The notes beneath the pieces are model-generated. The model saw only the letters and a list, made by a program, of their open reading frames with translations. It had not been told where the DNA came from and did no database searches. From Bixzunavirus tonenili (Duplodnaviria; Heunggongvirae; Uroviricota; Caudoviricetes), in IMG/VR virus record IMGVR_UViG_2706796412_000001, positions 1-64,000 of that record: 64,000 nucleotides of DNA. The stretch is one strand, 5' to 3'. Below are positions 48,301-60,562 of this stretch, piece after piece. The position numbers were made by a program, and so were the translations under genes. The stretch's first letter is position 1, and the number at the start of each line of letters is the position of its first letter.

Positions 48301-49180
48301 GCCAGGTAGCACCATCGACACCAGCGGCATGCCTGACGCCACCGGTGCAGGCAGCCAGGCCACCACGCCGGGCGGATTCGACCTGAGCCAGTTCAACGAC
48401 ACCATCAGCGGGGTCGGCGACGCCATCAATACCGGTGTGGGCATTGCCAGCGACATCGCGAGCGGAGTCGGCGATGTGGTCAGCGGCATCGGCAGCATCT
48501 TCAGCTCGCGTCAGGACTACGAGGAGTGGCACCGCTACGCCTACCCGGAGCCTGGCGACCACAAGCCGTTCGCCGGGTCGGGACCGGCAGGGCCGCTGGA
48601 GATCGGCCCGTCGACCGAGTACGCCGACAAGGCTCGCCGGAAGATGGACGACGTCACCGACCTGGACTACGACCACACCAAGCCGGTCAACCCTCGGCAG
48701 TCCTCGGCAGGCGGCGGCATCCAGCGTGCCGGTCGTGGCCCGCGTCGATCGGTGGAGCCGGTGGTGGTTCGTGAACAGCGCCCCGGACGTCCCGTGGTCG
48801 CCGCCGAGCAGCCTCATGTGCCCGACAACTTCGATCCGCTGGCGCCGCGCACGGCGGCCAGCTTCGACGATCCGTACGCCGACGATCAGGCCGCGATACA
48901 CATCGCGGCCAGCACTGACGACGACATCGTCGCAGCCTTCCAGCGTAGCGCTGGTGCCGAGGCCATCATGTCCAGTTCGGGCGGTGGCACCGACTACGAC
49001 GACTTCTCCTCGTCGCCTGCGGTGATCGCGGCCATGCAGCGCACCGCCGGACGGCAGTACTCGCCTGCCGAGCAGGCCGAGCTGATCCGCGAGGGCGACC
49101 GGGGCGGTGCGGGCAATCTCGACGCCCTGGATCTGCGCGGCACGCACTACGAGGCAGAGCACAGCATCGGCCTGTGGTGA
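45377..49180 (+). CDS. giant protein (1267 aa) with SWIM-type zinc finger and LysM peptidoglycan-binding domain
   Basis: CACEWGKWAFQRRMTYVGRLCSHGYAAYL (CxC..CxH); LysM YQIQSGDTLADIAQRSGYGGDYNSLAQQNSIADPNKINAGDTINIG; Gly/Ser/Thr linkers; antisense ORF 44462-49162 rejected. Confidence 0.6.
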   Translation: MATVYTDYGPGEVIASETVRGRTQYQVRVAGYGEMWLDATKVGAIHEAWAPMDHDNSVSLPYDPKPQYPALPGDTESTIQPIHEIDADERLSPADSITFEDRSDDESIIDGHSDNFAKSAAVPLPYGAGGLEGDPHELHRQWMEETGEHPSLSPYADEVGAHEDDFLPEEDWHPSDQYGDLNKPYPADTWRSDVDQRYLGSANPDLPGHMTNAHEAAAFLIPLMGAGAAAGEAGLGGAVAGGLARGVGMGAASEMLGGGGDPSQGGGGVVDQAIDAAQPGPGWGELQRGASLDQWLSGQDQGSGRAAGLGDRYIDLTAAIDPNDPVTMFRQDPVAFINRTGHVHDEPVSEQMQHYGHLIEANPQIREAAWRDVRAKALRLRREGRVHVKDVAPDRIYASVDGDHGTYDVMIAKGSAFGGFGGGHAISNWRCACEWGKWAFQRRMTYVGRLCSHGYAAYLTMQSEHMKGKPRQRRMPQVRKRADALQNTPQRLVPELAVNDSDDAHTFLDVTEDERKDTGPDDVITEKDIVHFSRLMAKCDAERLPYPRTLVAFLERYADDQTPEDWKIEDTGKAAPALEELRDWADTSQEDYLGNMEERVEDIRDAVDTAREYGVDASQLTAGVNFRTADLDDYVRTNSDGSKTQRSRGTTTTTTPSDAAADTEADNQDDPSYVPGSASNGADPRFRNPNQPAGLQGPGFNGDYPGTQIQGPGVPSANQPGPGGQAPDSAVNGGAGAGGNFYKDWYGGPGGTQNTPGSGSASGGGSGSSGNSSSGTGGGGGGWERNTDTSPISQGEYQIQSGDTLADIAQRSGYGGDYNSLAQQNSIADPNKINAGDTINIGTPGTGGGAPASNPAQTGSNPATPSTGAPSTTQVDTSAATQSGGSGTGSSTVDTSAAASTPTDNAASQTTTETNKTSRRRRQAAPSGSTTTPAQSTTPDSEGLVDSMDNPAAPTGGTPASSSTAIDLPDSNTTTPGSTIDTSGMPDATGAGSQATTPGGFDLSQFNDTISGVGDAINTGVGIASDIASGVGDVVSGIGSIFSSRQDYEEWHRYAYPEPGDHKPFAGSGPAGPLEIGPSTEYADKARRKMDDVTDLDYDHTKPVNPRQSSAGGGIQRAGRGPRRSVEPVVVREQRPGRPVVAAEQPHVPDNFDPLAPRTAASFDDPYADDQAAIHIAASTDDDIVAAFQRSAGAEAIMSSSGGGTDYDDFSSSPAVIAAMQRTAGRQYSPAEQAELIREGDRGGAGNLDALDLRGTHYEAEHSIGLW

Positions 49181-49215: not shown

Positions 49216-52200
49216 GTGGCTACCAAGCACGTGCTGCATGCCGAACGACGGGACATCACCACCCGTCCTACGGACAGGGCCATCCGGCGCAAGCTGAAGC
49301 ATGCCGAGACTATCGGCGACTTCAAAATGCGTCCGGGTTACCTCTACACCGTGGTTCGGGCCATCTCGGCGCGAGTTAACCAGAACTACGACGGTTGGCC
49401 GTCCGAAGAGCTGAAGAAGGCCGCGCACACCTTCATCGGAAAGCCGGTCTTTGTCAACCACGAGAACTACGACCCGAAGAAGGCTAGGGGAGTTGTTGTC
49501 GCCGCTCGTTACGTCGAGAACGGCAACGACAAGTTCATCGAGGTCATTCAGGAAATCGACGCCAAGCGTTTCCCAAAGCTGGCCCGCGAGATCCGCACCG
49601 GCGGACTTGACTCTGTGTCGATGGGCGCCGAGGCCGGATTCACGATCTGCTCTTACTGCGGCAACAAGGCGACCGACGTCCCCGACTTCTGCGATCACGT
49701 CAAGTACCACAAGGGCGACCGTTTGCCACGGTGGAACGCTAAGACCGGCAAGGTCGAGGACGTTCTGGTCTACGAGTCCTGCCACAAGATCAGCTTCTTC
49801 GAGTTGAGCTATGTGTTCGACCCGGCGGACGAGACGGCGGTGGCCTCCAAGGTCATCATGGCCAACAACAAGACCGCTGCCGACTGCCCGCCCGGCCAGG
49901 ACTGCACGGTCGGCGGCAAGCCCGAGGACCAGATCACTCCGGACTCGGCCAACAACCCGGTCAACGGCGGCAGCAACGACAGCAGCAGCACCGGCGGCGG
50001 TGCTGGAGCGAGCGCGGCCACCACGGTTTCTGGCGGCGAGCTGGGCGAGCCTGGCGAGTCGGTGTCCGCCGGAGGAGGAGCCGGGGCCGACGGCATCATG
50101 GACGTCTCGCGCCCGCTCTACGACCAGCTCAAGACGATCGACCCGAACGCCGACATCGGCGGCTACCGCCCTGGCGGCGACGGCTACGACGAGCACAACA
50201 ACGGCGCGCTCGACTACATGACCACCGACCCGGCAGTGGCCGAACAGGTCAAGCAGAAGGCGTTCGAGAACGGCGCCCCGTACGTCATCTGGCAGCAGCA
50301 GCTGCACTATCCCGACGGCTCCACCAAAGCGATGGAGGACCGAGGCAGTCCGACGCAGAACCACATGGACCACGTGCACACGGGCCCGCTCACCGGACCG
50401 AAGGCTGCCCGGGTCGAGCACACGGTTCTGGTCACCGCCGGGTTCGTCGATCCGGCTGCCGACTGCACCGTATGCCGTCAGGCCCGGGTGGCCACCAAGT
50501 GCCACTACTGCGCCGGAGACGCCGAGGAGGGCTTCTCCTCGTGCGCCGCGCATCGGCCCATGGAAGAGAAGAAGTTCAGGGCCGCACAGCGAGAGGAGGC
50601 CGCGATGACGTTCGAGGCCCGCGTGATTCGTGAGTTCCTCGGTGGCCCGCCGCCACCGGCCCGCCCGATGACCGGCATCGAGCACCAGCCCGGCCTCAAC
50701 CCCGAGGACTATGTCGTGCCGTACAAGGGGCGCGGCTACAAGCCCGGCATGCCGGTCGACGTCTACCGCAACCTGCATTCGGAGAAGACCGGCACCGGCC
50801 TGTGGTCGGTCCGGCACAAGGGCCAGGTGGTCGGCCACGCCGATTTCATCCACATGCCCGACGGCAAGTTCTTCGTCGGCGAGGGCGGCAACCAGAAGGT
50901 CCAGGAGACCGGCCAGAAGAACGTGCACGCCGGAGCGCGCGGCGTGCTGGGCCCGGTGCCGCACGATCACGATCCGTCCCAGTACGTCGGCATCACCTAC
51001 AACCCCAAGGCCGGAGACACCAGCTTCTACCAGCGCGAGACCAAGGAGCCGGTCTGGGAGGCCGACCATGTGCACCTGGGTCCCGACGGCAAGGCCTACA
51101 CCCTCGGTCCGCGCAGCGGCATGGCCAGCGCCGACCAGAAGGTCTTCGAGGCCATGGTCCTGCAGGCCTACGGCGAGACCGAGGCGCCCACCCGTGTGGA
51201 CACCCTGCGTGAAGAGGGCTCGGCGCCCGAGGACGACAACAACGACTTCTACCACTACGTCGAGCCGCCCAAGGAGCTGCAGACCCCAGATCTGTCTGAG
51301 GCCGCACAGATCGACCGCGAGCAGGCCGAAAACATGGGCGGCAATGGTGCTGTCGACACCGACGGTGATCCCGGCCCGCACAGCGTGATGAACCAGCAGC
51401 CTGCCGCGCCGCAGCAGCAGTACATGACGCTGCAGATCCCGATCCCTCCGCAGGGTGCGGGCGTCCCGAGCGTGCCGATGCAGGCCTTCCAGCCTCAGCC
51501 CGGTCCCGCCCCGGCCCCGGCACAGCAGATCGCTGCCTCGACGCTCGACTACTTCGACCGCTACTTCGGGCGCCGTGTGGCCAACTGGCTCGACGCCGTC
51601 GAGGCCGGGCGCCCGTTCACCGCCGAAGAGGCTTCGGACTACAGGCGGCAAGCAATGAAGCTATCGACCCTGCAAAACGCGGCCTCAGCTTCAACAACAA
51701 GTAGGAACCCCAGGAAAGGAACCGCCAACATGGCACGCAGCACTCTCGCCTCGCGCAGCAAGGTGGTGACGGCTGGTCGTCGGCAGCACTTCGCCGAAGG
51801 TCCGTTGGTGGACTCCGGCGACCAGAGCCGCAACGACCAGGGAGAGCAGGAAGAGGCCTTCATCTCGACCACGCCTCCCGAGGAGCCGGTGGTGGCTCCG
51901 ACCGATGACACCCCGAACATCTCCAACACCGAGCAGAACCTCGTTGCTCGGGTGCAGCGGGGCCGCGCCCAGCTCATGGCCGACGCGCAGAAGCTGGCTC
52001 AGCTTCAGGCCGCCCGCAAGCGCCGGACGGCCAACGAGGCCGGAGGCCCGGTGGCCACCGAGGTCAACCCGACCGTCAACTCCGGCCCGGGCGCCGAGGA
52101 GCTGACCGGGGACGACTTCGAGTCGGCCAACCCCAACGACGGCGTTGTCGAGACTCAGCCCAAGGATGCGAGCCTCCACGCGTTCCGCACCTTCGACTCG

Positions 52201-52926
52201 TGGCTGAAGCGCAAGACGGGCAAGTCGAGCCGGTACCACACTCACGCGACGATTCGTCGCGCGGCGGACGACTTCAGCCGTCAGTCCGGAGTTTCCGTCC
52301 AGGCCCTGTTCCCGGCCCTGGGAATCGTGCTGCGAGAAGCACGAAAGAACGAAAAGGCAGCAGCCAACACCAAGGGAGCCAACATGCGCAAGCGCGCCGA
52401 CGAGAAGCTGGAAGTCGCAGCTCCGGATGGACGTGTTGACGTCGAGGCCCCGACCCGAGGAACGACTGACGCAGAGGCTCAGGCCTCTCAGTTCGACCTC
52501 AACGACTTCGGCAACAACGCCGGAGACGATATCGCCGATCCGGATCTGAGCACTGATCAGAACTGGGCCCCCGGCGAGGCCACCAAGACCAGCAGGGTCA
52601 AGACGGCAGGTGGCGTTCTCGCCTTCCGTCTGGCGGAAGCCATGATCGCTGCTGGTATCGAGCCGAACACCGCCGAGCGGAAGTATGCGCTGGCGGCAGA
52701 GTTCGAAAACATGAGCCGTGGTGCGGTCCAGGACCGTATCGCGCTGTGCGAGCGCTTCGTGCCGGTTCTGGCCGCAGCTCGCCGTCAGGTCGCCAGCGGT
52801 AGTACTCGCGGGGCCGCACTGAAGTCCCCCATCCCTTCGGGTCTGGCACAGGGCGCGCAGCGCACCGCCGGTCGCGCAGTGGTGGCGGCAAACGACCCCC
52901 GTAATGACTCTTCGCTCTTCATCTGA
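49216..52926 (+). CDS. giant protein (1236 aa) with HK97-type (S78) prohead protease-like N-terminal region
   Basis: GTG after AGAGGAGG; N-terminal KPVFVNHENYDPKKARGVVVAARYVENGN resembles S78 protease His-region; immediately upstream of capsid genes; rest Pro/Ala/Gln-rich. Confidence 0.55.
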   Translation: MATKHVLHAERRDITTRPTDRAIRRKLKHAETIGDFKMRPGYLYTVVRAISARVNQNYDGWPSEELKKAAHTFIGKPVFVNHENYDPKKARGVVVAARYVENGNDKFIEVIQEIDAKRFPKLAREIRTGGLDSVSMGAEAGFTICSYCGNKATDVPDFCDHVKYHKGDRLPRWNAKTGKVEDVLVYESCHKISFFELSYVFDPADETAVASKVIMANNKTAADCPPGQDCTVGGKPEDQITPDSANNPVNGGSNDSSSTGGGAGASAATTVSGGELGEPGESVSAGGGAGADGIMDVSRPLYDQLKTIDPNADIGGYRPGGDGYDEHNNGALDYMTTDPAVAEQVKQKAFENGAPYVIWQQQLHYPDGSTKAMEDRGSPTQNHMDHVHTGPLTGPKAARVEHTVLVTAGFVDPAADCTVCRQARVATKCHYCAGDAEEGFSSCAAHRPMEEKKFRAAQREEAAMTFEARVIREFLGGPPPPARPMTGIEHQPGLNPEDYVVPYKGRGYKPGMPVDVYRNLHSEKTGTGLWSVRHKGQVVGHADFIHMPDGKFFVGEGGNQKVQETGQKNVHAGARGVLGPVPHDHDPSQYVGITYNPKAGDTSFYQRETKEPVWEADHVHLGPDGKAYTLGPRSGMASADQKVFEAMVLQAYGETEAPTRVDTLREEGSAPEDDNNDFYHYVEPPKELQTPDLSEAAQIDREQAENMGGNGAVDTDGDPGPHSVMNQQPAAPQQQYMTLQIPIPPQGAGVPSVPMQAFQPQPGPAPAPAQQIAASTLDYFDRYFGRRVANWLDAVEAGRPFTAEEASDYRRQAMKLSTLQNAASASTTSRNPRKGTANMARSTLASRSKVVTAGRRQHFAEGPLVDSGDQSRNDQGEQEEAFISTTPPEEPVVAPTDDTPNISNTEQNLVARVQRGRAQLMADAQKLAQLQAARKRRTANEAGGPVATEVNPTVNSGPGAEELTGDDFESANPNDGVVETQPKDASLHAFRTFDSWLKRKTGKSSRYHTHATIRRAADDFSRQSGVSVQALFPALGIVLREARKNEKAAANTKGANMRKRADEKLEVAAPDGRVDVEAPTRGTTDAEAQASQFDLNDFGNNAGDDIADPDLSTDQNWAPGEATKTSRVKTAGGVLAFRLAEAMIAAGIEPNTAERKYALAAEFENMSRGAVQDRIALCERFVPVLAAARRQVASGSTRGAALKSPIPSGLAQGAQRTAGRAVVAANDPRNDSSLFI

Positions 52927-52957: not shown

Positions 52958-53500
52958 ATGACTTTCCGTCCACCGGCGTCCAATCCGGCTCAGAAGCGGA
53001 CGCTGGTTCCGCGTTACGCCAACACCCAGGCCACCCCCTGGGCGGGCTTCCTCGATCCGGATCTGGACATCGATTTCGACATCCTGCCCGGCACCGTGAT
53101 GCAGCGGCTGTACGGCGACGTGTTCGCTCCGTACACCGGCGCAGCGGGCACCGTGCCCTTCGGCCTGTCGGCCCTGTTCGTCGCCCCACGTCTGGGCGTC
53201 AGCGAGGTCTCCAGCTCGGGCACCGGCCTGTTCACCGTGTGGGTGGGCGACAGCCAGGCCGTCTTCGACGTGCTGGCACCGGCATTCGACGTGGATGCTG
53301 ACTGGCCCGCCGCTGGCGCGACCGGACCGCATCGCGTCATGTTGACGGCGAACGCGAAGGGTCGGCTGACTCCCGAGGGTGTGACCCCGGAGAACGTCAT
53401 CGCCGAGCTGATCGACATCCCGTCGACCGACAAGATCACGATCCGCCTGAACCGCCTCGACCTCGCGGCGACCGGTGGCGGACTGGCGGGAGGCAGCTAA
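52958..53500 (+). CDS. head-associated protein (180 aa; scaffold or decoration candidate)
   Basis: AGGAGGA RBS; sits between protease-like gene and major capsid gene. Confidence 0.45.
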   Translation: MTFRPPASNPAQKRTLVPRYANTQATPWAGFLDPDLDIDFDILPGTVMQRLYGDVFAPYTGAAGTVPFGLSALFVAPRLGVSEVSSSGTGLFTVWVGDSQAVFDVLAPAFDVDADWPAAGATGPHRVMLTANAKGRLTPEGVTPENVIAELIDIPSTDKITIRLNRLDLAATGGGLAGGS

Positions 53501-53503
53501 GCC

Positions 53504-54505
53504 ATGACTCTTCCAGTTGCAGTCGGAAGCGGCCTGGGCCGCTTCGCCAAGGCGTCCGACGACTACGTGGCCGACATCGTCGAGGCCAAGCAGCGTATGG
53601 GCAATCGCAAGCTCAGCGCTCGCGAGAAGCAGGCCAAGCTCGCTCACATCCTGAGCGACAAGGTCGGCGGCATCCAGCGTCTGGGCCAGTCGATGATCGG
53701 CCCGATCCAGCTCCAGCTGCGTTACCAGGGCATCCTGCGTAACGTCCTGCTGGAGGACACGCTGACCCCCGGCGTGCCGATCCAGTACGACGTCCTGGAC
53801 GACCTCGGCCAGGCCTACATGCTGCACGGCAACGAGGGCGAGATCCGCATCACCCCCTTCGAGGGCAAGCGTATCGAGGTCCAGCTGTTCCGCATCGCGA
53901 GCTTCCCGCAGATCAAGAAGGAAGACCTGTACTACCTCCGCAGCAACATCGTGGAGTACACGCAGGACATGACCAAGCAGGCCATCATGCGCCAGGAGGA
54001 CTCGCGCCTCGTGACGCTGCTGGAGGCTGCAGCGGTCAGCTACCGCGTCGTGGACAGCTCGGCTCAGCCGGGCGTCGGCGCACTGCCCAACGAGATCACC
54101 ATCGCCGGTTCACACCTGATGCCGGATGATCTCTACACGGCGGTGACCTACACCGACCAGCGTCAGCTGGACAGCTCGCGCCTGCTGGCGAACCCGCAGG
54201 AGTACCGCGACCTGTACCGGTGGGACATCAACACGACCGGTTGGGCCTTCAAGGACTCGGTGGTCGCTGGTGAGCGCATCGTCCAGTTCGGCGAGTTCCA
54301 GATCGGCAAGTCGATCATCATCCCGCGTGGCACCGTCTACCTGACCCCGGAGCCCGAGTTCCTCGGCGTCTTCCCGGTCATGTACTCCCTCGATGTCGAG
54401 GAGGACAACAAGGTGGAGCGGTTCAACAAGGGCTGGGTGATGGACGAGCTGGTCGGCATGGCCGTGCTCAACCCGAGGGGCATCGTCATCCTCAGGAAAG
54501 CCTGA
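53504..54505 (+). CDS. major capsid protein (HK97-fold candidate, 333 aa)
   Basis: size, position after protease/scaffold genes, strong terminator downstream. Confidence 0.6.
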   Translation: MTLPVAVGSGLGRFAKASDDYVADIVEAKQRMGNRKLSAREKQAKLAHILSDKVGGIQRLGQSMIGPIQLQLRYQGILRNVLLEDTLTPGVPIQYDVLDDLGQAYMLHGNEGEIRITPFEGKRIEVQLFRIASFPQIKKEDLYYLRSNIVEYTQDMTKQAIMRQEDSRLVTLLEAAAVSYRVVDSSAQPGVGALPNEITIAGSHLMPDDLYTAVTYTDQRQLDSSRLLANPQEYRDLYRWDINTTGWAFKDSVVAGERIVQFGEFQIGKSIIIPRGTVYLTPEPEFLGVFPVMYSLDVEEDNKVERFNKGWVMDELVGMAVLNPRGIVILRKA

Positions 54506-54537: not shown

Positions 54538-54578
54538 ACCCCGCTACCTGCAAAGGTGGCGGGGTTCCTGCTTTCTCT
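54538..54578 (+). terminator. rho-independent terminator ACCCCGC-[ACCT gcaa AGGT]-GCGGGGT plus T-rich tail
   Basis: 7-bp stem with nested GNRA hairpin then TTCCTGCTTTCTCT, 33 nt after capsid gene stop. Confidence 0.6.
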
Positions 54579-54766
54579 GATTGACGTCAAGGGCTGGTTG
54601 CGTCCAGAGTCCGAGGTCAAGTGCCGCGAGGCTGGTGTCCGATTGATCACCAAAGCCGACCTGCTGCGTCTGGAATCTGGCGACAGTCTGGACGCCCACC
54701 GCATGCTGCTGTGGAACCCTGTGACGGCCTCGTGATCTGACTCAAATAGGTGAAGGGAGGTCTGTC

Positions 54767-55144
54767 ATGCGCCGCATCGTCACCGCACGTGAGCAGGCTG
54801 AGATGCTGCTGCCGTGGCGCACGGCGATGCCCTGGTATGGCGTTCCTGATGAGCACAGGGGTGTGCCGATGTACCACAGCTCCCCGTCATACAACCGCGA
54901 CTCCATCCAGAGTCAGGGGCTGACAACTGGGTTTTCTGACGACGAGGGGATTGAGCCAGGCATCTATATGACGCCGATCAAGCACGACTACCTCGATGCC
55001 GATCATGACGTGTGGCAAATTGATACTTCAGGTCTGGAACACCTAGAGCCTGATGGAGGATATGACCACCCCACAACCGGCAAACATCTGCCTGCGTACT
55101 GGACTCGAAATAACATTCCACCTCATGCCTTGAAGCGACTGTAG
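54767..55144 (+). CDS. protein with N-terminal RIVTAREQAEMLLPW motif (125 aa)
   Basis: GGGAGG RBS; N-terminal motif shared with 57084 and 58675 genes. Confidence 0.5.
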   Translation: MRRIVTAREQAEMLLPWRTAMPWYGVPDEHRGVPMYHSSPSYNRDSIQSQGLTTGFSDDEGIEPGIYMTPIKHDYLDADHDVWQIDTSGLEHLEPDGGYDHPTTGKHLPAYWTRNNIPPHALKRL

Positions 55145-55193
55145 CGGCATTGTCATCCTCCGGAAGGCATAACCCCAGGTCAAGCAACGAGAA

Positions 55194-55222
55194 GGCCCCC
55201 TCTTCGGAGGGGGTTTTCTTGT
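55194..55222 (+). terminator. rho-independent terminator CCCCCTC-TTCG-GAGGGGG plus TTTTCTT
   Basis: 7-bp GC stem with UUCG tetraloop and U-tract after 54767-55144. Confidence 0.65.
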
Positions 55223-55248
55223 GTCTGCCGGAAAAACTTCGCGGGCCG

Positions 55249-55284
55249 GGAATGAATGCCCATGCCGGTCTGTTATACTGAGTA
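55249..55284 (+). promoter_or_regulatory. promoter-like motif GGGAATGAATGCCCAT..GTTATACTGAGT
   Basis: consensus copy; leader ACGCACTCACACGAAAGG upstream of ATG 55317. Confidence 0.5.
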
Positions 55285-55316
55285 CACGACACGCACTCAC
55301 ACGAAAGGTCAGATCC

Positions 55317-55949
55317 ATGAGCATCTACCCCGCATCCGACGCCCAGATCCGCTTCATCAACACCCTGCTTGCCGAGCGTGACGTCCCGCAGGCCTCCCGC
55401 GATTACGTCGAGCAGCTGCTGACCACCGGCATCAGCAGCAAGCGTGCCAGCGACGCCATCACCCACCTGAAGGGCTTCGTCAAGATCCAGGTCCAGCAGG
55501 AGCTGGCCGTCGCGGCCATCGCCCGCCCCCGGCCCACCGAGCCCGGCTTCTACCTGGTCGACGGCGAGGTCTTCAAGGTCGTCGAGACCCGTGACGGCGA
55601 GCGGCTCTACGCCAAGAAGACCACCGCCCACGGCCTGGAGTACGTCCCCGGCGCCATGACCCGGATCTTCGCCGATCAGAAGCTCTCGCCCGAGCAGATC
55701 GCCGAGCAGGGCTTGACTCAGGGCTTCTGCATCGTGTGCTCCTCGGAGTTCGAGGACCCGACCTCCAAGCACATCGGCATCGGCCCGACCTGCGGTCCCA
55801 AGACCCTGGGCAAGGACGTCTACAAGGAGCTGCGGCTGAGCGTGGCCGATCGCCCCGACGTTGTCGCCTTCGAGGCCGCGAAGAAGGCCCGGGCCAAGGA
55901 GGCCCGCGAGGCCAAGAAGCGCCAGGGCGAGCAGCTCGCGCTGGTGTGA
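55317..55949 (+). CDS. hypothetical protein (210 aa) in self-contained promoter-gene-terminator cassette
   Basis: flanked by consensus promoter and two copies of the same UUCG-tetraloop terminator. Confidence 0.55.
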   Translation: MSIYPASDAQIRFINTLLAERDVPQASRDYVEQLLTTGISSKRASDAITHLKGFVKIQVQQELAVAAIARPRPTEPGFYLVDGEVFKVVETRDGERLYAKKTTAHGLEYVPGAMTRIFADQKLSPEQIAEQGLTQGFCIVCSSEFEDPTSKHIGIGPTCGPKTLGKDVYKELRLSVADRPDVVAFEAAKKARAKEAREAKKRQGEQLALV

Positions 55950-55963
55950 CCCGCCAGCCAAGA

Positions 55964-55995
55964 GGCCCCCTCTTCGGAGGGGGTCTCTTCGTTTG
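55964..55995 (+). terminator. rho-independent terminator CCCCCTC-TTCG-GAGGGGG plus TCTCTTCGTTTG
   Basis: second copy of the hairpin found at 55194. Confidence 0.65.
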
Positions 55996-56030
55996 CCCGA
56001 GGGCCATGAATAGATGAGGAGGACTTCCCC

Positions 56031-56570
56031 ATGACTCTGCCTGGACCCCCGAACACTCCGCCCGGCGCCGATTCTCCGGCCTGGCCTCCGGTCGTCTCTG
56101 CCAACGGCTACGTGCCGCCCGAGAGCATTCCGACCCGTACCACGGTGACCTCGGTCGAGGGTCGGTCCGGTGATGTCGACGTCACCATGGGCGACATCGA
56201 GGGCCTGCAGGAAGCGCTGGACGAAGCGAGCGCCCCGGCGACGTGGGACACCCTATCCGGCAAGCCTGCCGTGATCGCTGCCGGGGCCACCCAGGCCGCC
56301 GCTCGGTCGGCCATCGGCGCGGGCACTTCCAGCCTGGCCCTGGGCACCACGGCCTCCACCGCACTGGCGGGCAACACCGCGCTGGTGCCGCCCACGCGCA
56401 CCGTCAACGGCAAGGCCCTCAGTGCCAACGTGACGCTCGGTGGTGGTGATGTGGCACTGACCGGCTACGCCGCCGGGACCGCCGAACCGGTGGCCGCCAC
56501 CGACACGGTCAACGCGGCCATCGCCAAGCTGGAGGCGAGGATCGCCGCCCTGGAGGCCGGACAGCCGTAA
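56031..56570 (+). CDS. tail fibre-like protein with LPGPPNTPP N-terminus (179 aa)
   Basis: Ala/Thr/Gly-rich repeats (ALSANVTLGGGDVALTG), C-terminal coiled coil AKLEARIAALEAGQ. Confidence 0.45.
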   Translation: MTLPGPPNTPPGADSPAWPPVVSANGYVPPESIPTRTTVTSVEGRSGDVDVTMGDIEGLQEALDEASAPATWDTLSGKPAVIAAGATQAAARSAIGAGTSSLALGTTASTALAGNTALVPPTRTVNGKALSANVTLGGGDVALTGYAAGTAEPVAATDTVNAAIAKLEARIAALEAGQP

Positions 56571-56573
56571 GTG

Positions 56574-56609
56574 GGGAATGAATCCCCATATCTCTGTGTT
56601 ATACTAGGT
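56574..56609 (+). promoter_or_regulatory. promoter-like motif GGGGAATGAATCCCCAT..GTTATACTAGGT
   Basis: consensus copy; leader CATTCACCCACACACAGAGGAG upstream of ATG 56642. Confidence 0.5.
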
Positions 56610-56641
56610 GCACATTCACCCACACACAGAGGAGTTCCGGC

Positions 56642-56860
56642 ATGATCATCGACGACCTCAACGGAGAACTGGTCGACATCGAGGACGGCGGCGTCTCGAA
56701 CGAGAAGCTCGTCCAGATAGAGCGTGAGTACTTCTCGCTTCTGATCGATCCGGGCACCGAGCGCTACTGGGGGCGGGACTACCTGCGCCACTTGGGCCAG
56801 GACTACGACTCGATCGTCGAGGAGATCGGCTACCGTCGACGCGATCGGGAATGGGTGTGA
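56642..56860 (+). CDS. hypothetical protein (72 aa)
   Basis: ORF after promoter and leader. Confidence 0.4.
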   Translation: MIIDDLNGELVDIEDGGVSNEKLVQIEREYFSLLIDPGTERYWGRDYLRHLGQDYDSIVEEIGYRRRDREWV

Positions 56861-56875
56861 GGAGGTGACCATGAG

Positions 56876-57040
56876 ATGGAGCGCTACCTGTTCGCCGGAA
56901 GCGAGTTGACCCGCGACGAACTGGAGAAGGCTTTGGCTCCAGAGCTGGACGAACTCAACGCCGCCCAGGGCACCAAGATCGGCTTCGACGAATACCTGGC
57001 CGCAGCTCTGAACACCGGCACCATCACCGAGATCCTGTAA
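56876..57040 (+). CDS. hypothetical protein (54 aa)
   Basis: GAGGAGG RBS. Confidence 0.3.
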   Translation: MERYLFAGSELTRDELEKALAPELDELNAAQGTKIGFDEYLAAALNTGTITEIL

Positions 57041-57052
57041 GGCGGGGCGGGA

Positions 57053-57074
57053 CCTCCTCTAATAGGTGAGGAGG
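57053..57074 (+). promoter_or_regulatory. SD-sequestering hairpin CCTCCTC-taataggt-GAGGAGG
   Basis: 7-bp stem whose 3' arm is the RBS of gene 57084; same architecture as hairpin at 31595. Confidence 0.45.
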
Positions 57075-57083
57075 CCTGTCCTG

Positions 57084-58682
57084 ATGCGAATCACCACTGC
57101 TCGCGAGCAGTTCGAAATGCTCTTGCCCTGGCGAGAGGCCGACGTCGCTATTCGCCCAGACGCCGTTCCGCCAGGAGTTCCTGGTGCTGGCAATCAGCCT
57201 CAGATCCCGGCCCGAGAGAAGAACATCGGCGAAAACACGCCATGGTCGCAGGTCGACTGGCGTACCGCCGACGATTACGGGGCGCATCGGTCCACCAGTC
57301 GACCACCGATGTCTTCCGACATCCCGCACCCGACCGAGCTGCTCGATCCCCGCAAGGCCGGTCATCGTGCACGCCTGGAGCGTGCGATGGCCAGCGAAGA
57401 CCCGGTGAACGATCCATGGAACGTCCTCGGCGGCACACCCTGGACATTCGAAGACCTGGTCCAGAACCACATGAGCCACCACCAGAACATGAATCCCGAG
57501 CAGGAGTTTCAGGGGCGTGTCTGGTACCCAGCGGCCCATGACTCCACCAAGGACGTGGCCCAGCGGACCATCGGTGACCACGAGCGCACGGTGGCCGTCG
57601 ATTCGGCGCTGTCGCCGGTCAAGGACTGGGACCTCAACAACGAGCAGATGATCCACTACCTGACCAACTACGAGGGTCAGGAGGGATACAAGTCTCCGAC
57701 GAAGAACTGGAAGGGATTCAGCCGCGACGCGCCCGAGCGCGACCCTGAGAACCGGTTCCGGGTCAAGGCGCCCGACGATCAGAACGAGAAGGCTCATCGG
57801 CTGATGGACGCCCCGGCAGGATCGCTGGGGCGAGAGGACTACCTCAACATCCTGTCCGGCCCCAAGACCAGCTCCTTCTTCAACAACATCCTCGACGAGA
57901 CCCCGCTGCGCGAACCGCGCTCAGGCGTGCCGGACGACGAGGGGTTCTACGAGCACCAGATCAATCCGAACACCGGCAAGCCGGACTGGCGCTACGGCGA
58001 TCAGGACGTCACCGTGGACACCCATCACGCTCGGGTTCAGACGATCCCGCACGGCGCCGATCTCAGCCAGGTGGGGTACGTGGTGCCCGACCACTTCGGC
58101 GAGAAGCTCACAGTCAACAAGAAGGCCTACCACCCCGGTTATGACCTGCACGCTCGTGCGTCGGCGGAAGCAACCCGTCGGCTCAACGCCATGCAGGAGG
58201 ACGACCTGCGGACCTTGAAGCCCAAGCAGGCTCAGGCCGGTCCGTGGGTCAAGTTCAAGAAGGACGTCGTCGACGCCGGTGTGTCGCCGAACATGCCCGA
58301 GCCCGGCCAGATGCCCAAGTCTTTCAATCCCGACAAGCCGACCCAGCTGAGGGGCCCGTATCCGAACACTCCGGACCAGCCTCGTTACCAGCGTGACGTT
58401 GGCGACTTCTGGGTACATCCAGACCGTCCGGACCCGGACTTGCGCCGGGCTCCGAACTGGAACAACCGCACGCCCAGCTGGCGTAGCGAGAAGAATCGTC
58501 GGCAGTCGTCGGTGCGGGTGGGCTTCGTCGAGGAATGGATCGCTCAGCACTTCCCGCATCGGGCTTCTGGCGTTCCCGAAGACGGCAGCGTCCAGCAGGT
58601 GGTTCAGGCCAGCTTCGACGACGGATCTCGGCTGACTGCTGAGACTCTCGCCTTCGCCGATGAGGTGCTCAAGAATGTGTAA
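57084..58682 (+). CDS. large protein (532 aa) with N-terminal RITTAREQFEMLLPW motif
   Basis: shared N-terminal motif; Pro/Asp-rich; downstream of capsid genes. Confidence 0.55.
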   Translation: MRITTAREQFEMLLPWREADVAIRPDAVPPGVPGAGNQPQIPAREKNIGENTPWSQVDWRTADDYGAHRSTSRPPMSSDIPHPTELLDPRKAGHRARLERAMASEDPVNDPWNVLGGTPWTFEDLVQNHMSHHQNMNPEQEFQGRVWYPAAHDSTKDVAQRTIGDHERTVAVDSALSPVKDWDLNNEQMIHYLTNYEGQEGYKSPTKNWKGFSRDAPERDPENRFRVKAPDDQNEKAHRLMDAPAGSLGREDYLNILSGPKTSSFFNNILDETPLREPRSGVPDDEGFYEHQINPNTGKPDWRYGDQDVTVDTHHARVQTIPHGADLSQVGYVVPDHFGEKLTVNKKAYHPGYDLHARASAEATRRLNAMQEDDLRTLKPKQAQAGPWVKFKKDVVDAGVSPNMPEPGQMPKSFNPDKPTQLRGPYPNTPDQPRYQRDVGDFWVHPDRPDPDLRRAPNWNNRTPSWRSEKNRRQSSVRVGFVEEWIAQHFPHRASGVPEDGSVQQVVQASFDDGSRLTAETLAFADEVLKNV

Positions 58683-59976
58683 CCACCGTCGCATCGTCAC
58701 CGCCCGCGAGCAGTTCGAGATGCTGCAACCCTGGCACCGCGAAGCGGCTGCGCACCCGGAGGCTCACCCGGATCTGCACCACAGCTTCGCCACGCACGGC
58801 TCGGTGCACACCACCGGTGGCCGCGTGCTGCCGCAGCGCACCGCCAACTCGCCGACCTTCCAGGATCCGGCGGGATGGACCTTCCACAAGTCCTTCGAGC
58901 CCAGCCAGCACGCATTGCAGGGCGCACGGGCCTACGCCTCGCTGGTCGGCCTGCCGGACCCACACTCCGGTCATGTGGACTACCTCAACGCCCGCCGGAC
59001 GCCCGACAGCGTGGCCAAGGTGGCCAAGGCCTACGACAGCCTGCCGGACATGGACCGCAGTGCCATCCCGCACTTCCAGGCGATGGCCGACGAGGTGGCC
59101 AAGCAGCACGACTTCATGACCAATCGTCTGGGCATCAAGACCCAGTCGGTGGACTACGACCCGTACACCGACGTGCACGAGATGCTGCACGACATCAACC
59201 ACAACAAGACCCTCAAGGTGATGGGCACCCATGTCACCGGCGGGCATCCCTTGTTCAGCAACAAGCAGAACGACATGTTCCGCGCTGTGCACGACTTCTT
59301 CGGTCATGCCGCGACCGGGCGCAGCTTTGACCGACATGGCGAGCAGGCTGCATACCTGGCGCACGCGCAGATGTTCTCTCCGCACGCGCTGCCCGCGCTG
59401 GCCAGCGAGACCAAGGGTCAGAACAGCTCGCTGATCTACAACGGCCAGTTCGGTCCGCAGAAGATCGGCATCATGTCGCCGGAGCACTACACCGACGGCC
59501 TGGCGCTGCACCGACCGCGTATGTCATCCTATAGAACAGCTGTAGGAGATCCACAGTGGCAGAACGAGGTAGAGAAGGCCGTGCGCGAGACGGGCGGGTA
59601 CACCTTCCGCGATCGTCCTGGTGACGGCCCGCAGAGCGGATTCATGGTGGCCCTGCCGGGCGCCGAGAAGATCGTTCCGCGTGACGAGTTCTCCGGAGAG
59701 GATGCCGCCCGCTATCGCCAGGAGTGGGACGACAGGATCCGGGAGGATCCCGATCGCTATCAGGGTGGCTGGGACGACGTCGAGTCGGGCAACTTCTACC
59801 ACGACGTGGCCAAGCACTACGACGACCTCTGGGAGTCGGGTGTGGCCGGACGCGCCGAGAACGACGAAGATGCCCAGCACGGTATCTACCATCTCGACTC
59901 CGACACCACGTTCAGCCCTCTGGAGGTCAACTACGGCGGCACGCCGGGATACATGATGGCCAGGAGGGAAGACTGA
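58675..59976 (+). CDS. large protein (433 aa) with N-terminal RIVTAREQFEMLQPW motif
   Basis: ATG overlaps upstream stop; shared N-terminal motif; His-rich central segment HDFFGHAATG. Confidence 0.55.
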   Translation: MCNHRRIVTAREQFEMLQPWHREAAAHPEAHPDLHHSFATHGSVHTTGGRVLPQRTANSPTFQDPAGWTFHKSFEPSQHALQGARAYASLVGLPDPHSGHVDYLNARRTPDSVAKVAKAYDSLPDMDRSAIPHFQAMADEVAKQHDFMTNRLGIKTQSVDYDPYTDVHEMLHDINHNKTLKVMGTHVTGGHPLFSNKQNDMFRAVHDFFGHAATGRSFDRHGEQAAYLAHAQMFSPHALPALASETKGQNSSLIYNGQFGPQKIGIMSPEHYTDGLALHRPRMSSYRTAVGDPQWQNEVEKAVRETGGYTFRDRPGDGPQSGFMVALPGAEKIVPRDEFSGEDAARYRQEWDDRIREDPDRYQGGWDDVESGNFYHDVAKHYDDLWESGVAGRAENDEDAQHGIYHLDSDTTFSPLEVNYGGTPGYMMARRED

Positions 59977-60190: not shown

Positions 60191-60562
60191 ATGACGATGC
60201 CCACCGAGGAAAGCGGCAAGCCGGGTCTGTTCGACCGGTTTGCCGACCTCATCAACCAGTTCACCTCGCGCGCGTGGTTCTTCCTCGCCTGCGTTTTGCT
60301 CGTGCTGATATGGGCACCCAGCTTTCTGGTGGTGGGCAACATCGACACCTGGCAGCTGCTGATCAACACCCCGACCACGGTGATCACATTCCTGCTGGTG
60401 GCCCTGCAGGCCAACACCTCGAAGCGGTCCGACGCCTCGACGCAGACCAAGCTCAATGCCGTCGCCGACGGCATGGCCGACCTGATGGAGCACTTCGGGG
60501 TCACCAAGCATGCCCACGAACTACGAGAGGCCGTGGGACTGGAAGAAAAGGAGTCCACCTGA
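60191..60562 (+). CDS. DUF1003-like integral membrane protein (123 aa)
   Basis: two TM helices; LLINTPTTVITFLLVALQANTSKRSDASTQTKL resembles DUF1003 small membrane proteins. Confidence 0.45.
   Translation: MTMPTEESGKPGLFDRFADLINQFTSRAWFFLACVLLVLIWAPSFLVVGNIDTWQLLINTPTTVITFLLVALQANTSKRSDASTQTKLNAVADGMADLMEHFGVTKHAHELREAVGLEEKEST

Follow-up and report, generated by a model that had tools for sequence, protein, structure and literature searches.

In Mycobacterium phage Tonenili, a myovirus of cluster C1 (Bixzunavirus), we find that three proteins with no other relationship begin with the same short peptide, and that this tag is modular, strictly N-terminal, sharply bounded, carried by very diverse cargo and, in the contexts examined, confined to virion structural gene regions. 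Taking sequences, models and gene contexts together, we consider it probable, at roughly 0.6, that the tag is a self-contained N-terminal targeting signal by which Bixzunavirus-like actinobacteriophages bring an exchangeable repertoire of enzymes into the head while it assembles. Such a signal would most likely be a capsid-targeting label comparable to the capsid-targeting sequence (CTS) of T4, with no sequence relation to it. No prior description of the tag was found in the literature, and the searchable literature returned no virion proteomics, N-terminal sequencing or reporter work on these phages.

The window analysed here comprises bases 1-64000 of Tonenili, whose whole genome has 160,985 bp. 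A six-frame scan of the entire genome placed the tag at exactly three sites, namely gp245, gp240 and gp239, in each case at the N-terminus and with the pattern RRI(V/T)TAREQxEMLxPW(R/H). A tag HMM gave about 45 bits for each of them, the next-best match in the genome reaching 7 bits. The common N-terminal peptide claimed for these genes (54767, 57084 and 58675) in the preliminary description, which was made from the DNA letters, is therefore real, and its coordinates and sequences were found correct on recheck (Table 1). Its further claim that the three proteins are unrelated past the peptide agrees with pairwise BLASTP, where similarity is limited to the first 16-29 residues (E 5e-7 to 3e-6) and every other match has E > 0.4. 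As had been proposed, the genes follow the major capsid gene (53504-54505) and precede the tail sheath gene (genome position 70803), and the 5' sequence said to be common to two of them does precede gp245 and gp240, the stretch before gp240 reading AATAGGTGAGGAGGCCTGTC, one base indel away from that of gp245. The His-rich segment pointed out in the 433-aa protein was also located. The start of gp239 overlaps the stop of gp240 (ATGTGTAA).

Table 1. Tagged genes of Tonenili, their parts, and the neighbouring head genes (positions in the window).
Feature	Position	Strand	Description
gp249 prohead-protease-like domain, residues 61-213	49396..49854	+	PHROG 18299 'head maturation protease', E 2.7e-19
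Cement gp248 and major capsid gp247	52958..54505	+	Pfam Phage_cement_3; PHROG major head protein
gp245 5' leader with ribosome-binding site	54745..54766	+	AATAGGTGAAGGGAGGTCTGTC; resembles gp240 leader
gp245, 125 aa	54767-55144	+	Starts MRRIVTAREQAEMLLPWRTA; tag and orphan cargo, variable slot directly after capsid gene
gp245 N-terminal tag	54770..54826	+	RRIVTAREQAEMLLPWRTA; tag HMM 45.8 bits
gp240 5' leader	57060..57083	+	TAATAGGTGAGGAGGCCTGTCCTG
gp240, 532 aa	57084-58682	+	Starts MRITTAREQFEMLLPWREA; tag, linker, DUF7178 domain, tail
gp240 N-terminal tag	57084..57140	+	MRITTAREQFEMLLPWREA; modelled helix residues 6-21, pLDDT 68-76
gp240 globular domain, residues ~120-400	57441..58283	+	HhH-GPD DNA-glycosylase-like fold
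gp239, 433 aa	58675-59976	+	Starts MCNHRRIVTAREQFEMLQPWHREA; tag and domains ~60-278 and ~290-430
gp239 N-terminal tag	58687..58746	+	RRIVTAREQFEMLQPWHREA; modelled short helix residues 10-17, low confidence
HDFFGHAATG, conserved His/Asp cluster of gp239 central domain	59290..59319	+	Invariant residues in 74 homologues

The tag has the consensus M(x)RRI(V/L)TAREQxEMLSPWR(T/E)A, with 17-20 residues, an invariant Pro-Trp and an invariant A-R-(E/D)-Q. Counted from the Thr, its positions R(-4) to R(+12) have a high information content, which falls to noise from +16 onwards. When 16 tag codons of gp245 and gp240 are compared, five are identical, nine differ synonymously and two non-synonymously; within the tag, only 34-39 of 48 nucleotides are identical while the peptide is almost the same. 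Since the copies differ mainly at synonymous positions, selection acts on the peptide and not on the DNA, and the tag is thus selected at the protein level. Structure models predict a short helix, which in gp239 is not packed against the domains. A Tat signal peptide was considered because of the RR pair and rejected, as the next 15 residues (TAREQxEMLSPWRTA) are charged or polar, with no hydrophobic h-region; by inspection, the tag does not contain the known clamp-binding and SSB-binding motifs either. Some proteins contain internal in-frame tags, which fit a docking or cleavage module and do not fit a signal that requires a free N-terminus.

To follow the tag beyond Tonenili, a tag-only profile, which imposes no position on the match, was compared with 1.84 billion protein-cluster representatives at a cut-off of E <= 1e-3. 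The preliminary description had proposed to look for the same peptide on different cargo in related phages, and this is what the profile returned, namely, 201 matching representatives with about 100 architectures, such that the proposal of a detachable module at the N-terminus of unrelated cargos is borne out far beyond this genome. Nearly all of the 150 matches listed start at residues 1-8, and the tagged proteins are 33-1375 aa long, two large ones (P0125 and P0126) having 1160 and 1375 aa. Grouping of the 159 cargo sequences at 60% mutual coverage gave about 100 groups, with GNAT (13/136), DUF7178, ParB_N and Arr-like ART among their domains. The peptide is kept across Mycobacterium phages, Gordonia phages and metagenomes, and a single phage can carry at least three to five tagged genes. 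Judged from these domain assignments, namely GNAT acetyltransferases, ParB_N, an Arr-like ADP-ribosyltransferase and a DNA-glycosylase-like fold, an effector role of the cargo is plausible.

Elsewhere the same cargo domains are found without the tag, behind other N-termini, or built into 'polyvalent' phage proteins linked to MuF. The motif is therefore separate from any globular domain, contrary to the possibility, raised at the outset, that it might belong to a conserved domain of full-length homologues. At least one related module, Pupper gp103, has no tag although other proteins of its phage carry one, which speaks against the targeting reading. Furthermore, the loci of the cargo genes are plastic, the tag staying constant while the cargo behind it changes. 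For instance, ScoobyDoobyDoo gp94 has the slot, leader and tag of Tonenili gp245 with a different cargo, and in Grungle gp94 a 74-aa module sits between the tag and a gp239 body that is otherwise 98.7% identical.

The three Tonenili cargos are very different from each other. For gp245, the sole match among 5.8 billion proteins was itself, with no relatives in Pfam, PDB sequences or local profiles. The most widely conserved tagged cargo is gp240, which has tagged orthologues in Myrna, Phabba, Pupper, Skog, a Mycolicibacter contig and metagenomes. Behind its tag follow a disordered, Pro-rich linker (residues 21-89), a helical DUF7178 domain (Pfam) and a disordered tail; aligning the orthologues shows a conserved tag and a linker of variable length, which is absent in Myrna and Phabba. 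The globular domain has the two-lobed helical fold of the HhH-GPD DNA glycosylase superfamily, and its family alignment has invariant GPK(261)TSSF and VTVD(312)THHARV, which resemble GRKTAN and IAVDTHIFRV of Nth; an active member of the superfamily would be expected to have a helix-hairpin-helix and a catalytic Asp, with a Lys as well in bifunctional enzymes. A sequence search of the PDB gave no significant match for this domain. In gp239, residues H191, H206, D207, F209, G210, H211, H221, E223 and H230 are invariant in 74 sequences, and neither of its domains matched a solved fold in the PDB. The gp239 domain is found behind the tag, behind Zn-ribbon or other N-termini, and in untagged proteins of 245 aa; it is also present in viral proteins whose names are head-morphogenesis (MuF), LPD, ART-PolyVal, NAT_SF and zeta toxin.

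In each of the eight contexts examined (Tonenili, Myrna, Phabba, Pupper, Skog, the Mycolicibacter contig and two metagenome contigs), the tagged genes have virion structural genes around them, and in seven of these they stand beside cement and capsid genes or the adjoining protease-fusion gene. In Tonenili this last gene is gp249 (49216-52926), just upstream of the tagged genes and encoding a 1236-aa fusion protein. The preliminary description had seen an S78 prohead-protease-like domain here, for which the PHROG match (Table 1) speaks, while Pfam Peptidase_S78_2 stayed under threshold (E 0.16, 12.4 bits against a cutoff of 24); a sequence search of the PDB returned nothing for this domain, which is a candidate processing enzyme. 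No MuF domain was detected in the scanned Tonenili head-region proteins, and no recurring cleavage motif was found in the other head proteins, the SARE-K of the capsid protein (STPE-K in Myrna, TAAE-K in the Mycolicibacter contig) resembling the tag only loosely. A capsid-targeting signal fits this virion structural gene setting, the relatedness of the cargo to domains found in polyvalent proteins linked to MuF, and the fact that near-identical phages have swapped cargo at the boundary of the tag.

By analogy with T4 and P1 we infer packaging, followed by possible removal of the tag by the prohead protease, in a series of steps that may be pictured as follows. The tag would fold as a short amphipathic helix that terminates at the invariant Pro-Trp, with a flexible linker to the cargo. 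During prohead assembly it would dock on an internal component of the capsid module of this lineage, for which the part of the gp249 protease fusion that resembles a scaffold and the inner surface of the capsid protein are candidates. Docking would enclose the cargo, the prohead protease may then trim the tag, and at infection the cargo would exit with the DNA and act early in the host. The hints at a protease site where the tag ends are indirect, namely its invariant A-R-(E/D)-Q, its abrupt boundary behind PWR(T/E)A and the protease-like domain of gp249. A more ambitious version, which we would put slightly below even odds, takes the tag as a 'zip code' used universally by a large and hitherto unrecognised packaged-effector system, where any carrier would be enclosed in the head, polyproteins with internal tags would be cut by the prohead protease to give separate internal proteins, and the cargo would be injected into mycobacteria with the DNA. 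Just as tentatively, this cargo would include a DNA-glycosylase-like enzyme, acetyltransferases, ADP-ribosyltransferases and two folds that have no solved relative.

Two other functions for a protein-level signal were considered, and we judge both of them improbable, to a similar degree. The tag could address the portal, the neck, the tail lumen with the tape measure or some other virion part, or it could serve exit through the tail instead of loading. The Tonenili tagged genes do lie between head and neck genes; in Pupper, Skog and Phabba one tagged gene adjoins genes just upstream of the tail sheath, and polyvalent-type cargo of other phages is anchored via the portal-associated MuF. However, tagged genes come directly after the capsid gene in Tonenili, Myrna and ScoobyDoobyDoo, the known precedents of T4 and P1 are head-targeting, and several cargos per genome, of up to 60 kDa (and >100 kDa in relatives), suit the head interior better than the tail lumen. 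Alternatively, the tag could be an interaction or regulatory peptide unrelated to packaging, namely, a docking motif for a hub protein of host or phage origin, a chaperone handle, a degron, or an activation propeptide that times enzyme activity. Conserved short linear motifs on diverse enzymes often bind one common partner, and a helix with a linker is compatible with many binding modes; yet such a peptide would hardly be strictly N-terminal and restricted to virion structural gene regions of one capsid lineage, on cargo domains otherwise found in MuF-linked polyvalent virion proteins, and the dissimilarity to Tat signals and to clamp-binding or SSB-binding motifs also speaks against it.

Far less probable than either is conservation at the nucleic-acid level, whether as a translation-initiation or regulatory RNA element or as the translated border of a recombination cassette. 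Two of the three genes do have similar 5' leaders, cargo is swapped exactly at the tag boundary, and mobile regulatory cassettes with similar boundary swapping have reportedly been described for T4-type phages. Nevertheless, the mostly synonymous codon differences behind a near-identical peptide, the persistence of that peptide in Gordonia phages and metagenomes, and the tag of gp239, which has no such leader, argue against it; recombination at the tag is better read as a consequence than as its function. Ordinary homology, where the peptide would be the N-terminal part of one globular domain kept by diverged paralogues, receives the lowest probability of all. Three neighbouring genes could be old paralogues, but this is already contradicted by the abrupt end of conservation after ~20 residues, by the disordered linkers of variable length, by cargo folds as different as a glycosylase-like helical domain, two folds with no PDB match, GNAT and ParB_N, and by the existence of the same cargo domains untagged.

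If the tag is a packaging signal, it catalogues at once the proteins injected by large mycobacterial and Gordonia phages, and ~100 architectures, most of unknown function, become prime candidates for anti-defence or host-takeover factors, a kind of protein that is difficult to identify in actinobacteriophages by other means. For phage engineers, the tag would be a handle of 20 residues with which enzymes or reporters could be loaded into mycobacteria-infecting particles, comparable to the T4 CTS and P1 DarB for E. coli; were the zip-code version true, this handle would be ready-made for delivering foreign proteins into mycobacteria. In evolutionary terms, a constant tag with variable cargo would have arisen independently of T4, in a different capsid and protease lineage, and the tag system would be linked to the domain pool of polyvalent proteins.

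The T4 CTS has about 10 residues, MKTYQEFIAE, to which RRIVTAREQxEMLSPWRTA has no meaningful similarity by inspection; the tag would therefore be CTS-like in its working, and not a member of that sequence family. Both are short N-terminal peptides on otherwise unrelated proteins of one lineage (in T4, IPI, IPII, IPIII and Alt; Mullaney and Black, 1996), and the T-even internal proteins are diverse apart from their conserved CTS (PMC3012670). In both systems the genes lie among late or structural genes, and the cargo is diverse and exchangeable, including enzymes and anti-defence proteins. Host phylum, capsid module and protease type differ (gp21 in T4, putatively HK97/XkdF-like in Tonenili), and given the dissimilar tag and protease the processing rules of T4 are not transferable. 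The Tonenili-type tag is also longer (17-20 residues), much more strongly conserved, spread over about 100 architectures and sometimes internal in polyproteins.

The cargo-loading peptides of encapsulins are likewise short, conserved and terminal, joined by flexible linkers to diverse enzymes, and dock inside a shell of HK97 fold. They are usually C-terminal, however, belong to bacterial nanocompartments with no DNA or ejection, and are unrelated in sequence. Phages of the phiKZ-like/SPN3US type encode near their head genes many inner-body or ejection proteins, which the prohead protease trims at S/A/G-X-E. This short cleavage motif ends in Glu, as may the A-R-(E/D) of the tag, and cleavage at ARE within the tag may be speculated upon; those propeptides are, in contrast, long and family-specific rather than one universal short tag.

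P1 DarB also has an N-terminal signal, its first 30 residues being sufficient for entry into a myovirus capsid, and its cargo is an anti-restriction enzyme (PMC9024508). It differs in being one protein of an ordered Dar assembly pathway instead of a tag for many cargos, with an unrelated sequence. Closest in cargo are the polyvalent proteins, a class proposed to be packaged and injected, with delivery together with the DNA predicted (PMC5512222, Iyer et al., 2017). They share GNAT, ART, ParB-like, zeta toxin and LPD-type domains, extensive shuffling into many architectures, and genes beside virion genes. Polyvalent proteins are, however, single giant polypeptides of 2-15 domains, usually with a MuF or portal-associated anchor, whereas the tagged proteins of Tonenili lack MuF and are separate, with one or two cargo domains each behind its own 20-residue tag.

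The sequence between 53000 and 60500 (7.5 kb) is 100% identical, at the same coordinates, to Mycobacterium phage Tonenili (NC_031080.1), a cluster C1 myovirus of the genus Bixzunavirus with a genome of 160,985 bp, and the reassembled Tonenili record agrees with the window across bases 1-64000. Upstream of the genes of interest lie the portal gene, gp250 (a 1267-aa LysM protein), gp249 (1236 aa), gp248 (cement) and gp247, and downstream are the neck and tail genes (Table). The preliminary description had proposed that gp245, gp240 and gp239 share an N-terminal peptide and are otherwise unrelated, and both claims were confirmed. The three proteins begin with MRRIVTAREQAEMLLPWRTA, MRITTAREQFEMLLPWREA and MCNHRRIVTAREQFEMLQPWHREA, respectively, and BLASTP aligns them over residues 1 to 16-29 only (E 5e-7 to 3e-6), all matches beyond the N-terminus having E > 0.4. 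A six-frame scan of the whole genome recovered these three copies of the tag and no more; the tag profile gives about 45 bits for each of them and 7 bits for the next-best segment genome-wide, and thus no weak additional copies were found. The similarity claimed for the leaders of two genes is real but short (AATAGGTGAAGGGAGGTCTGTC versus AATAGGTGAGGAGGCCTGTC). It is common to gp245 and gp240, and is missing from gp239 because the start codon of this gene overlaps the gp240 stop codon (ATGTGTAA), an arrangement that suggests translational coupling of gp240 and gp239.

Coordinates of the features discussed in the text (Tonenili unless otherwise stated).
Feature	Coordinates	Remarks
Portal gene	40235-42874	upstream of the tagged trio
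gp250	45377-49180	giant protein between portal and capsid genes
gp249	49216-52926	giant protein between portal and capsid genes
gp247	53504-54505	major capsid protein; upstream of the tagged trio
gp246	54556-54735	59-aa 'zinc finger binding domain' ORF between capsid gene and gp245
gp245	54767-55144	tagged; 'hypothetical protein' in deposited annotation
gp240	57084-58682	tagged; 'hypothetical protein' in deposited annotation
gp240 domain	57441-58283	DNA-glycosylase-like (HhH-GPD) fold with VDTH motif
gp240/gp239 overlap	58675-58682	stop and start codons
gp239	58675-59976	tagged; 'hypothetical protein' in deposited annotation
gp237	60191-60562	small 'membrane protein' just 3' of the tagged genes
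Tail sheath gene	70803	downstream of the tagged trio
Head module of M. kumamotonensis contig (L008)	LFOE01000001.1:141580-163811	GCA_001679965.1
Small genes on contig L015	11152-11598; 11598-12059	start with MSRHLMA(K/R)FRHL(H)A
Three-tag polyprotein P0125		
Three-tag polyprotein, contig L041	1591-5500	
Three-tag polyprotein, contig L036	11471-14790	

The tag is restricted in lineage and placed at protein starts. A tblastn search with the peptide matched 214 phage records, essentially all cluster C Mycobacterium phages plus Gordonia phages; cluster C phages usually carry two copies and sometimes three. Pupper, a Gordonia phage, encodes gp101, an orthologue of gp240 that begins with MARRIMTAREQ, and an unrelated 500-aa protein, gp109, that begins with MARRVVTAREQVATLAPWRTA; the tagged proteins Skog gp173 and Phabba gp123 have in common with Pupper gp109 the C-terminal domain only. 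A tag-only profile of 31 positions, searched with no word index against 1.84 billion cluster representatives at E <= 1e-3 and leaving position unconstrained, retrieved 201 proteins of 33 to 1375 aa, and nearly all of the 150 matches listed start at residues 1-8. Likewise, a separate exact-pattern scan of IMG/VR yielded 29 tagged loci at ORF starts, frequently with GTG start codons, and some contigs hold three to five tagged genes. Automatic gene calls often take the Met within the tag (MLxPW) as the start (metagenome proteins P0002-P0004, P0008-P0010, P0015, P0048, P0049 and P0127), which drops the first 12 residues, and the tag is therefore under-reported in databases.

The consensus of 166 tagged sequences is M(x)RRI(V/L)TAREQxEMLSPWR(T/E)A(A/M), in which the A, R, Q, P and W positions show 98-100% conservation, a figure that is partly circular as these sequences were chosen by profile and regular expression. 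This circularity does not affect the N-terminal position of the tag or its sharp boundary: counted from the Thr, information content is high from -4 to +12, weak over the next three positions, and at background from +16. The absence of a hydrophobic region after the twin arginines excludes a Tat signal.

What follows the tag is highly diverse. After removal of the tag, 159 cargo sequences fall into about 100 groups at 60% mutual coverage, and single linkage unites 131 of the 159, the signature of domain shuffling. As for the class of cargo, Pfam recognizes GNAT acetyltransferases (13 of 136 tagged proteins), DUF7178 (7), ParB_N (2) and an Arr-like ADP-ribosyltransferase (1), most of the 136 having no match. 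Relatives of the gp239 central domain number more than 140 in metagenomes: some are tagged, others have a Zn-ribbon or another recurrent N-terminus, and many are untagged stand-alone proteins of 245 aa. The domain is also found fused to others, including GNAT, glutaredoxin, HPr, PemK, zeta toxin, ART, DUF7178 and L5 gp82 domains. The motif is thus not part of a globular domain kept in full-length homologues; that it might be was a finding that the preliminary description had named as speaking against its proposal. Modularity is also seen among near-identical C1 phages, where the junction after the tag is the place of change. ScoobyDoobyDoo gp94 has the leader and tag of gp245 (24 residues, 92% identical) followed by a different cargo, and in Grungle gp94 a 74-aa module separates the tag from an otherwise 98.7% identical gp239 body. 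The N-terminus of Pupper gp103, which is untagged, is homologous to this module.

The other N-termini found on gp239-type domains are MSRHLMA(K/R)FRHL(H)A, a Zn-ribbon (CxKCG...MWCxMC) and MWLLAEFDDGRHPDL (P0029; P0055/58/61/64/66/68-70/76; P0014/16/18/23/30/44). The MSRHLMA-type start also occurs on two small genes of a contig, L015, that carries TAREQ tags too. These may be alternative targeting modules of other phage clades; in one phage with a Zn-ribbon-started gp239-like protein, no tag was found within 21 kb of flanking sequence.

Structural models agree with a flexibly tethered tag. In gp239 (mean pLDDT 84.6), two confident domains (~60-278 and 290-430) are preceded by the tag as a short low-confidence helix (residues 10-17), unpacked against both. 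The less confident gp240 model (mean pLDDT 62.8, from a 10-sequence alignment) has a tag helix at residues 6-21 (pLDDT 68-76), disorder at 21-89 and a confident helical domain at ~120-400; in the orthologue alignment the tag and the domain are conserved and the linker is variable, being absent from Myrna and Phabba. By inspection, the tag helix would display a hydrophobic stripe at positions 3, 6, 10 and 13 opposite a charged face, capped by the invariant Pro-Trp.

The gp239 model matched, in the BFVD database of predicted viral structures, 'phage head morphogenesis domain-containing', 'large polyvalent protein associated domain', 'ART-PolyVal-like', 'NAT_SF' and 'zeta toxin' entries, all of them polyvalent proteins of the kind for which Iyer et al. 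proposed packaging and injection (PMC5512222); in the same paper, capsid deployment was suggested for a solo GNAT encoded by the C1 phage Alice. In the case of gp240, which is probably head-internal, the best structural neighbour of its domain is the queuine-salvage enzyme DUF2419, and the family-invariant K261 (GPKTSSF) and D312 (VTVDTHHARV) resemble the Lys/Asp motifs of E. coli Nth, whose sequence was checked against 2abk. Sequence searches of gp240 against PDB gave no significant match, and glycosylase catalysis is a candidate activity only; the Skog orthologue was labelled 'glycosylase' by its GenBank annotator. The predicted fold raises the question of whether this domain may target modified bases of phage or host DNA.

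Virion structural genes surround the tagged genes in all eight contexts examined, namely, Tonenili, Myrna, Phabba, Pupper, Skog, a 439-kb Mycolicibacter kumamotonensis contig, and metagenome contigs of 172 kb and 88 kb. Seven of these show the Phage_cement_3 gene, the 333-aa capsid gene or the ~1237-aa protease-fusion gene, or the remainder of the same conserved order of structural genes, and the eighth shows the conserved downstream genes only. The M. kumamotonensis assembly contig carries a Bixzunavirus-like head module that comprises the cement gene, the gene for the 333-aa capsid protein and one for a 743-aa DUF7178 protein that bears the tag. As such phages are regarded as strictly lytic, it may represent a prophage, a carrier state, contamination or misassembly.

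Other genes of the Tonenili head region deserve mention. Long low-complexity Gly/Ser/Thr/Pro regions accompany the LysM domain of gp250, and a putative SWIM-like Cys/His motif was recognized by reading its sequence only; in gp249 a prohead-protease-like domain is joined to a further stretch of more than 1000 residues, with an L5 gp82-like domain and a region resembling tape-measure or endolysin motifs. The two giant proteins have the look of being head-internal or ejected themselves. The Pfam match of gp237 to Iron_permease (low-affinity iron permease, E 3e-20) is odd among virion structural genes. Beside the first tagged gene, the slot shows decay or variability: gp246 is what remains, at the C-terminal end, of a ~303-aa Cys-rich gene that is intact as ScoobyDoobyDoo gp93 (last ~45 residues identical), and other C1 phages have at this position a gene annotated, by annotation only, as HNH endonuclease or Holliday junction resolvase. 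A search of 5.8 billion proteins found no relatives of gp245 beyond the Tonenili copy itself. A YH(S/G)T...LTTGF pattern hinted that gp245 might be an Arr-like ADP-ribosyltransferase, which Pfam, PDB sequence search, local jackhmmer and homologue search did not support, and this reading is a lead only.

Some proteins contain in-frame internal tags. In a three-tag polyprotein family, ~250 residues of highly charged low-complexity sequence come after each of tags 1 and 2, and DUF7178 after tag 3, and (K/R/N)(S/Q)G precedes the internal tags; the family occurs in two independent contigs and is thus not an assembly artefact. Speculatively, this organization would fit a polyprotein cut at the tags. 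A protease site common to the tag (TARE-Q) and the capsid protein N-terminus (SARE-K) was rejected, as the capsid protein lacks a conserved motif here, Myrna having STPE-K and the Mycolicibacter contig TAAE-K, and no similar motif recurs in other head proteins.

We favour, with a probability of about 0.6, that the tag is a packaging signal; that it is also cleaved is a more tentative proposal, to which we give somewhat less than even odds. Two other roles for a selected peptide are each unlikely, namely, that it loads cargo into another part of the virion or serves exit, and that it is an interaction or regulatory peptide unrelated to packaging.

Explanations that do not invoke a selected, separable peptide fare far worse. 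Conservation as a nucleic-acid-level element is very improbable: over 16 aligned codons, gp245 and gp240 have five identical, nine with synonymous differences and only two with non-synonymous ones, and nucleotide identity among the Tonenili copies is 34-39 of 48. Since the differences are mostly synonymous, a recent DNA duplication, a DNA-level repeat or regulatory element, and an RNA element are ruled out as causes of the conservation, and it is the peptide, not the DNA, that is under selection. Ordinary domain homology is less probable still, as it is contradicted by the untagged cargo domains, the sharp boundary, the variable gp240 linker and the BFVD relatives of gp239.

The searchable literature, subscription-only papers being outside its coverage, yielded no description of this peptide and, for cluster C phages, neither proteomics of virions nor N-terminal sequencing. 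The value of the tag is practical and heuristic: it provides a ready catalogue of proteins that large actinobacteriophages may inject, two of which have no fold match, and a candidate handle to deliver proteins into mycobacteria.

N-terminal capsid-targeting tags on exchangeable internal proteins have been known since 1996, and the present tag is unrelated to them in sequence and lineage. Among the precedents, the T4 capsid targeting sequence (CTS) is the nearest; according to Mullaney and Black, it reportedly brings foreign proteins into the head and permits their proteolytic processing. The internal proteins of T-even phages are highly diverse and have only the conserved CTS in common, which sends them to the scaffolding core (PMC3012670), and residues 1-30 of DarB are enough for packaging in P1 (PMC9024508). 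Based on these precedents we propose that the tag would dock onto an internal component of the Bixzunavirus-type prohead, such that the cargo would become enclosed in the head and later exit with the DNA, and that the prohead protease may take the tag off.
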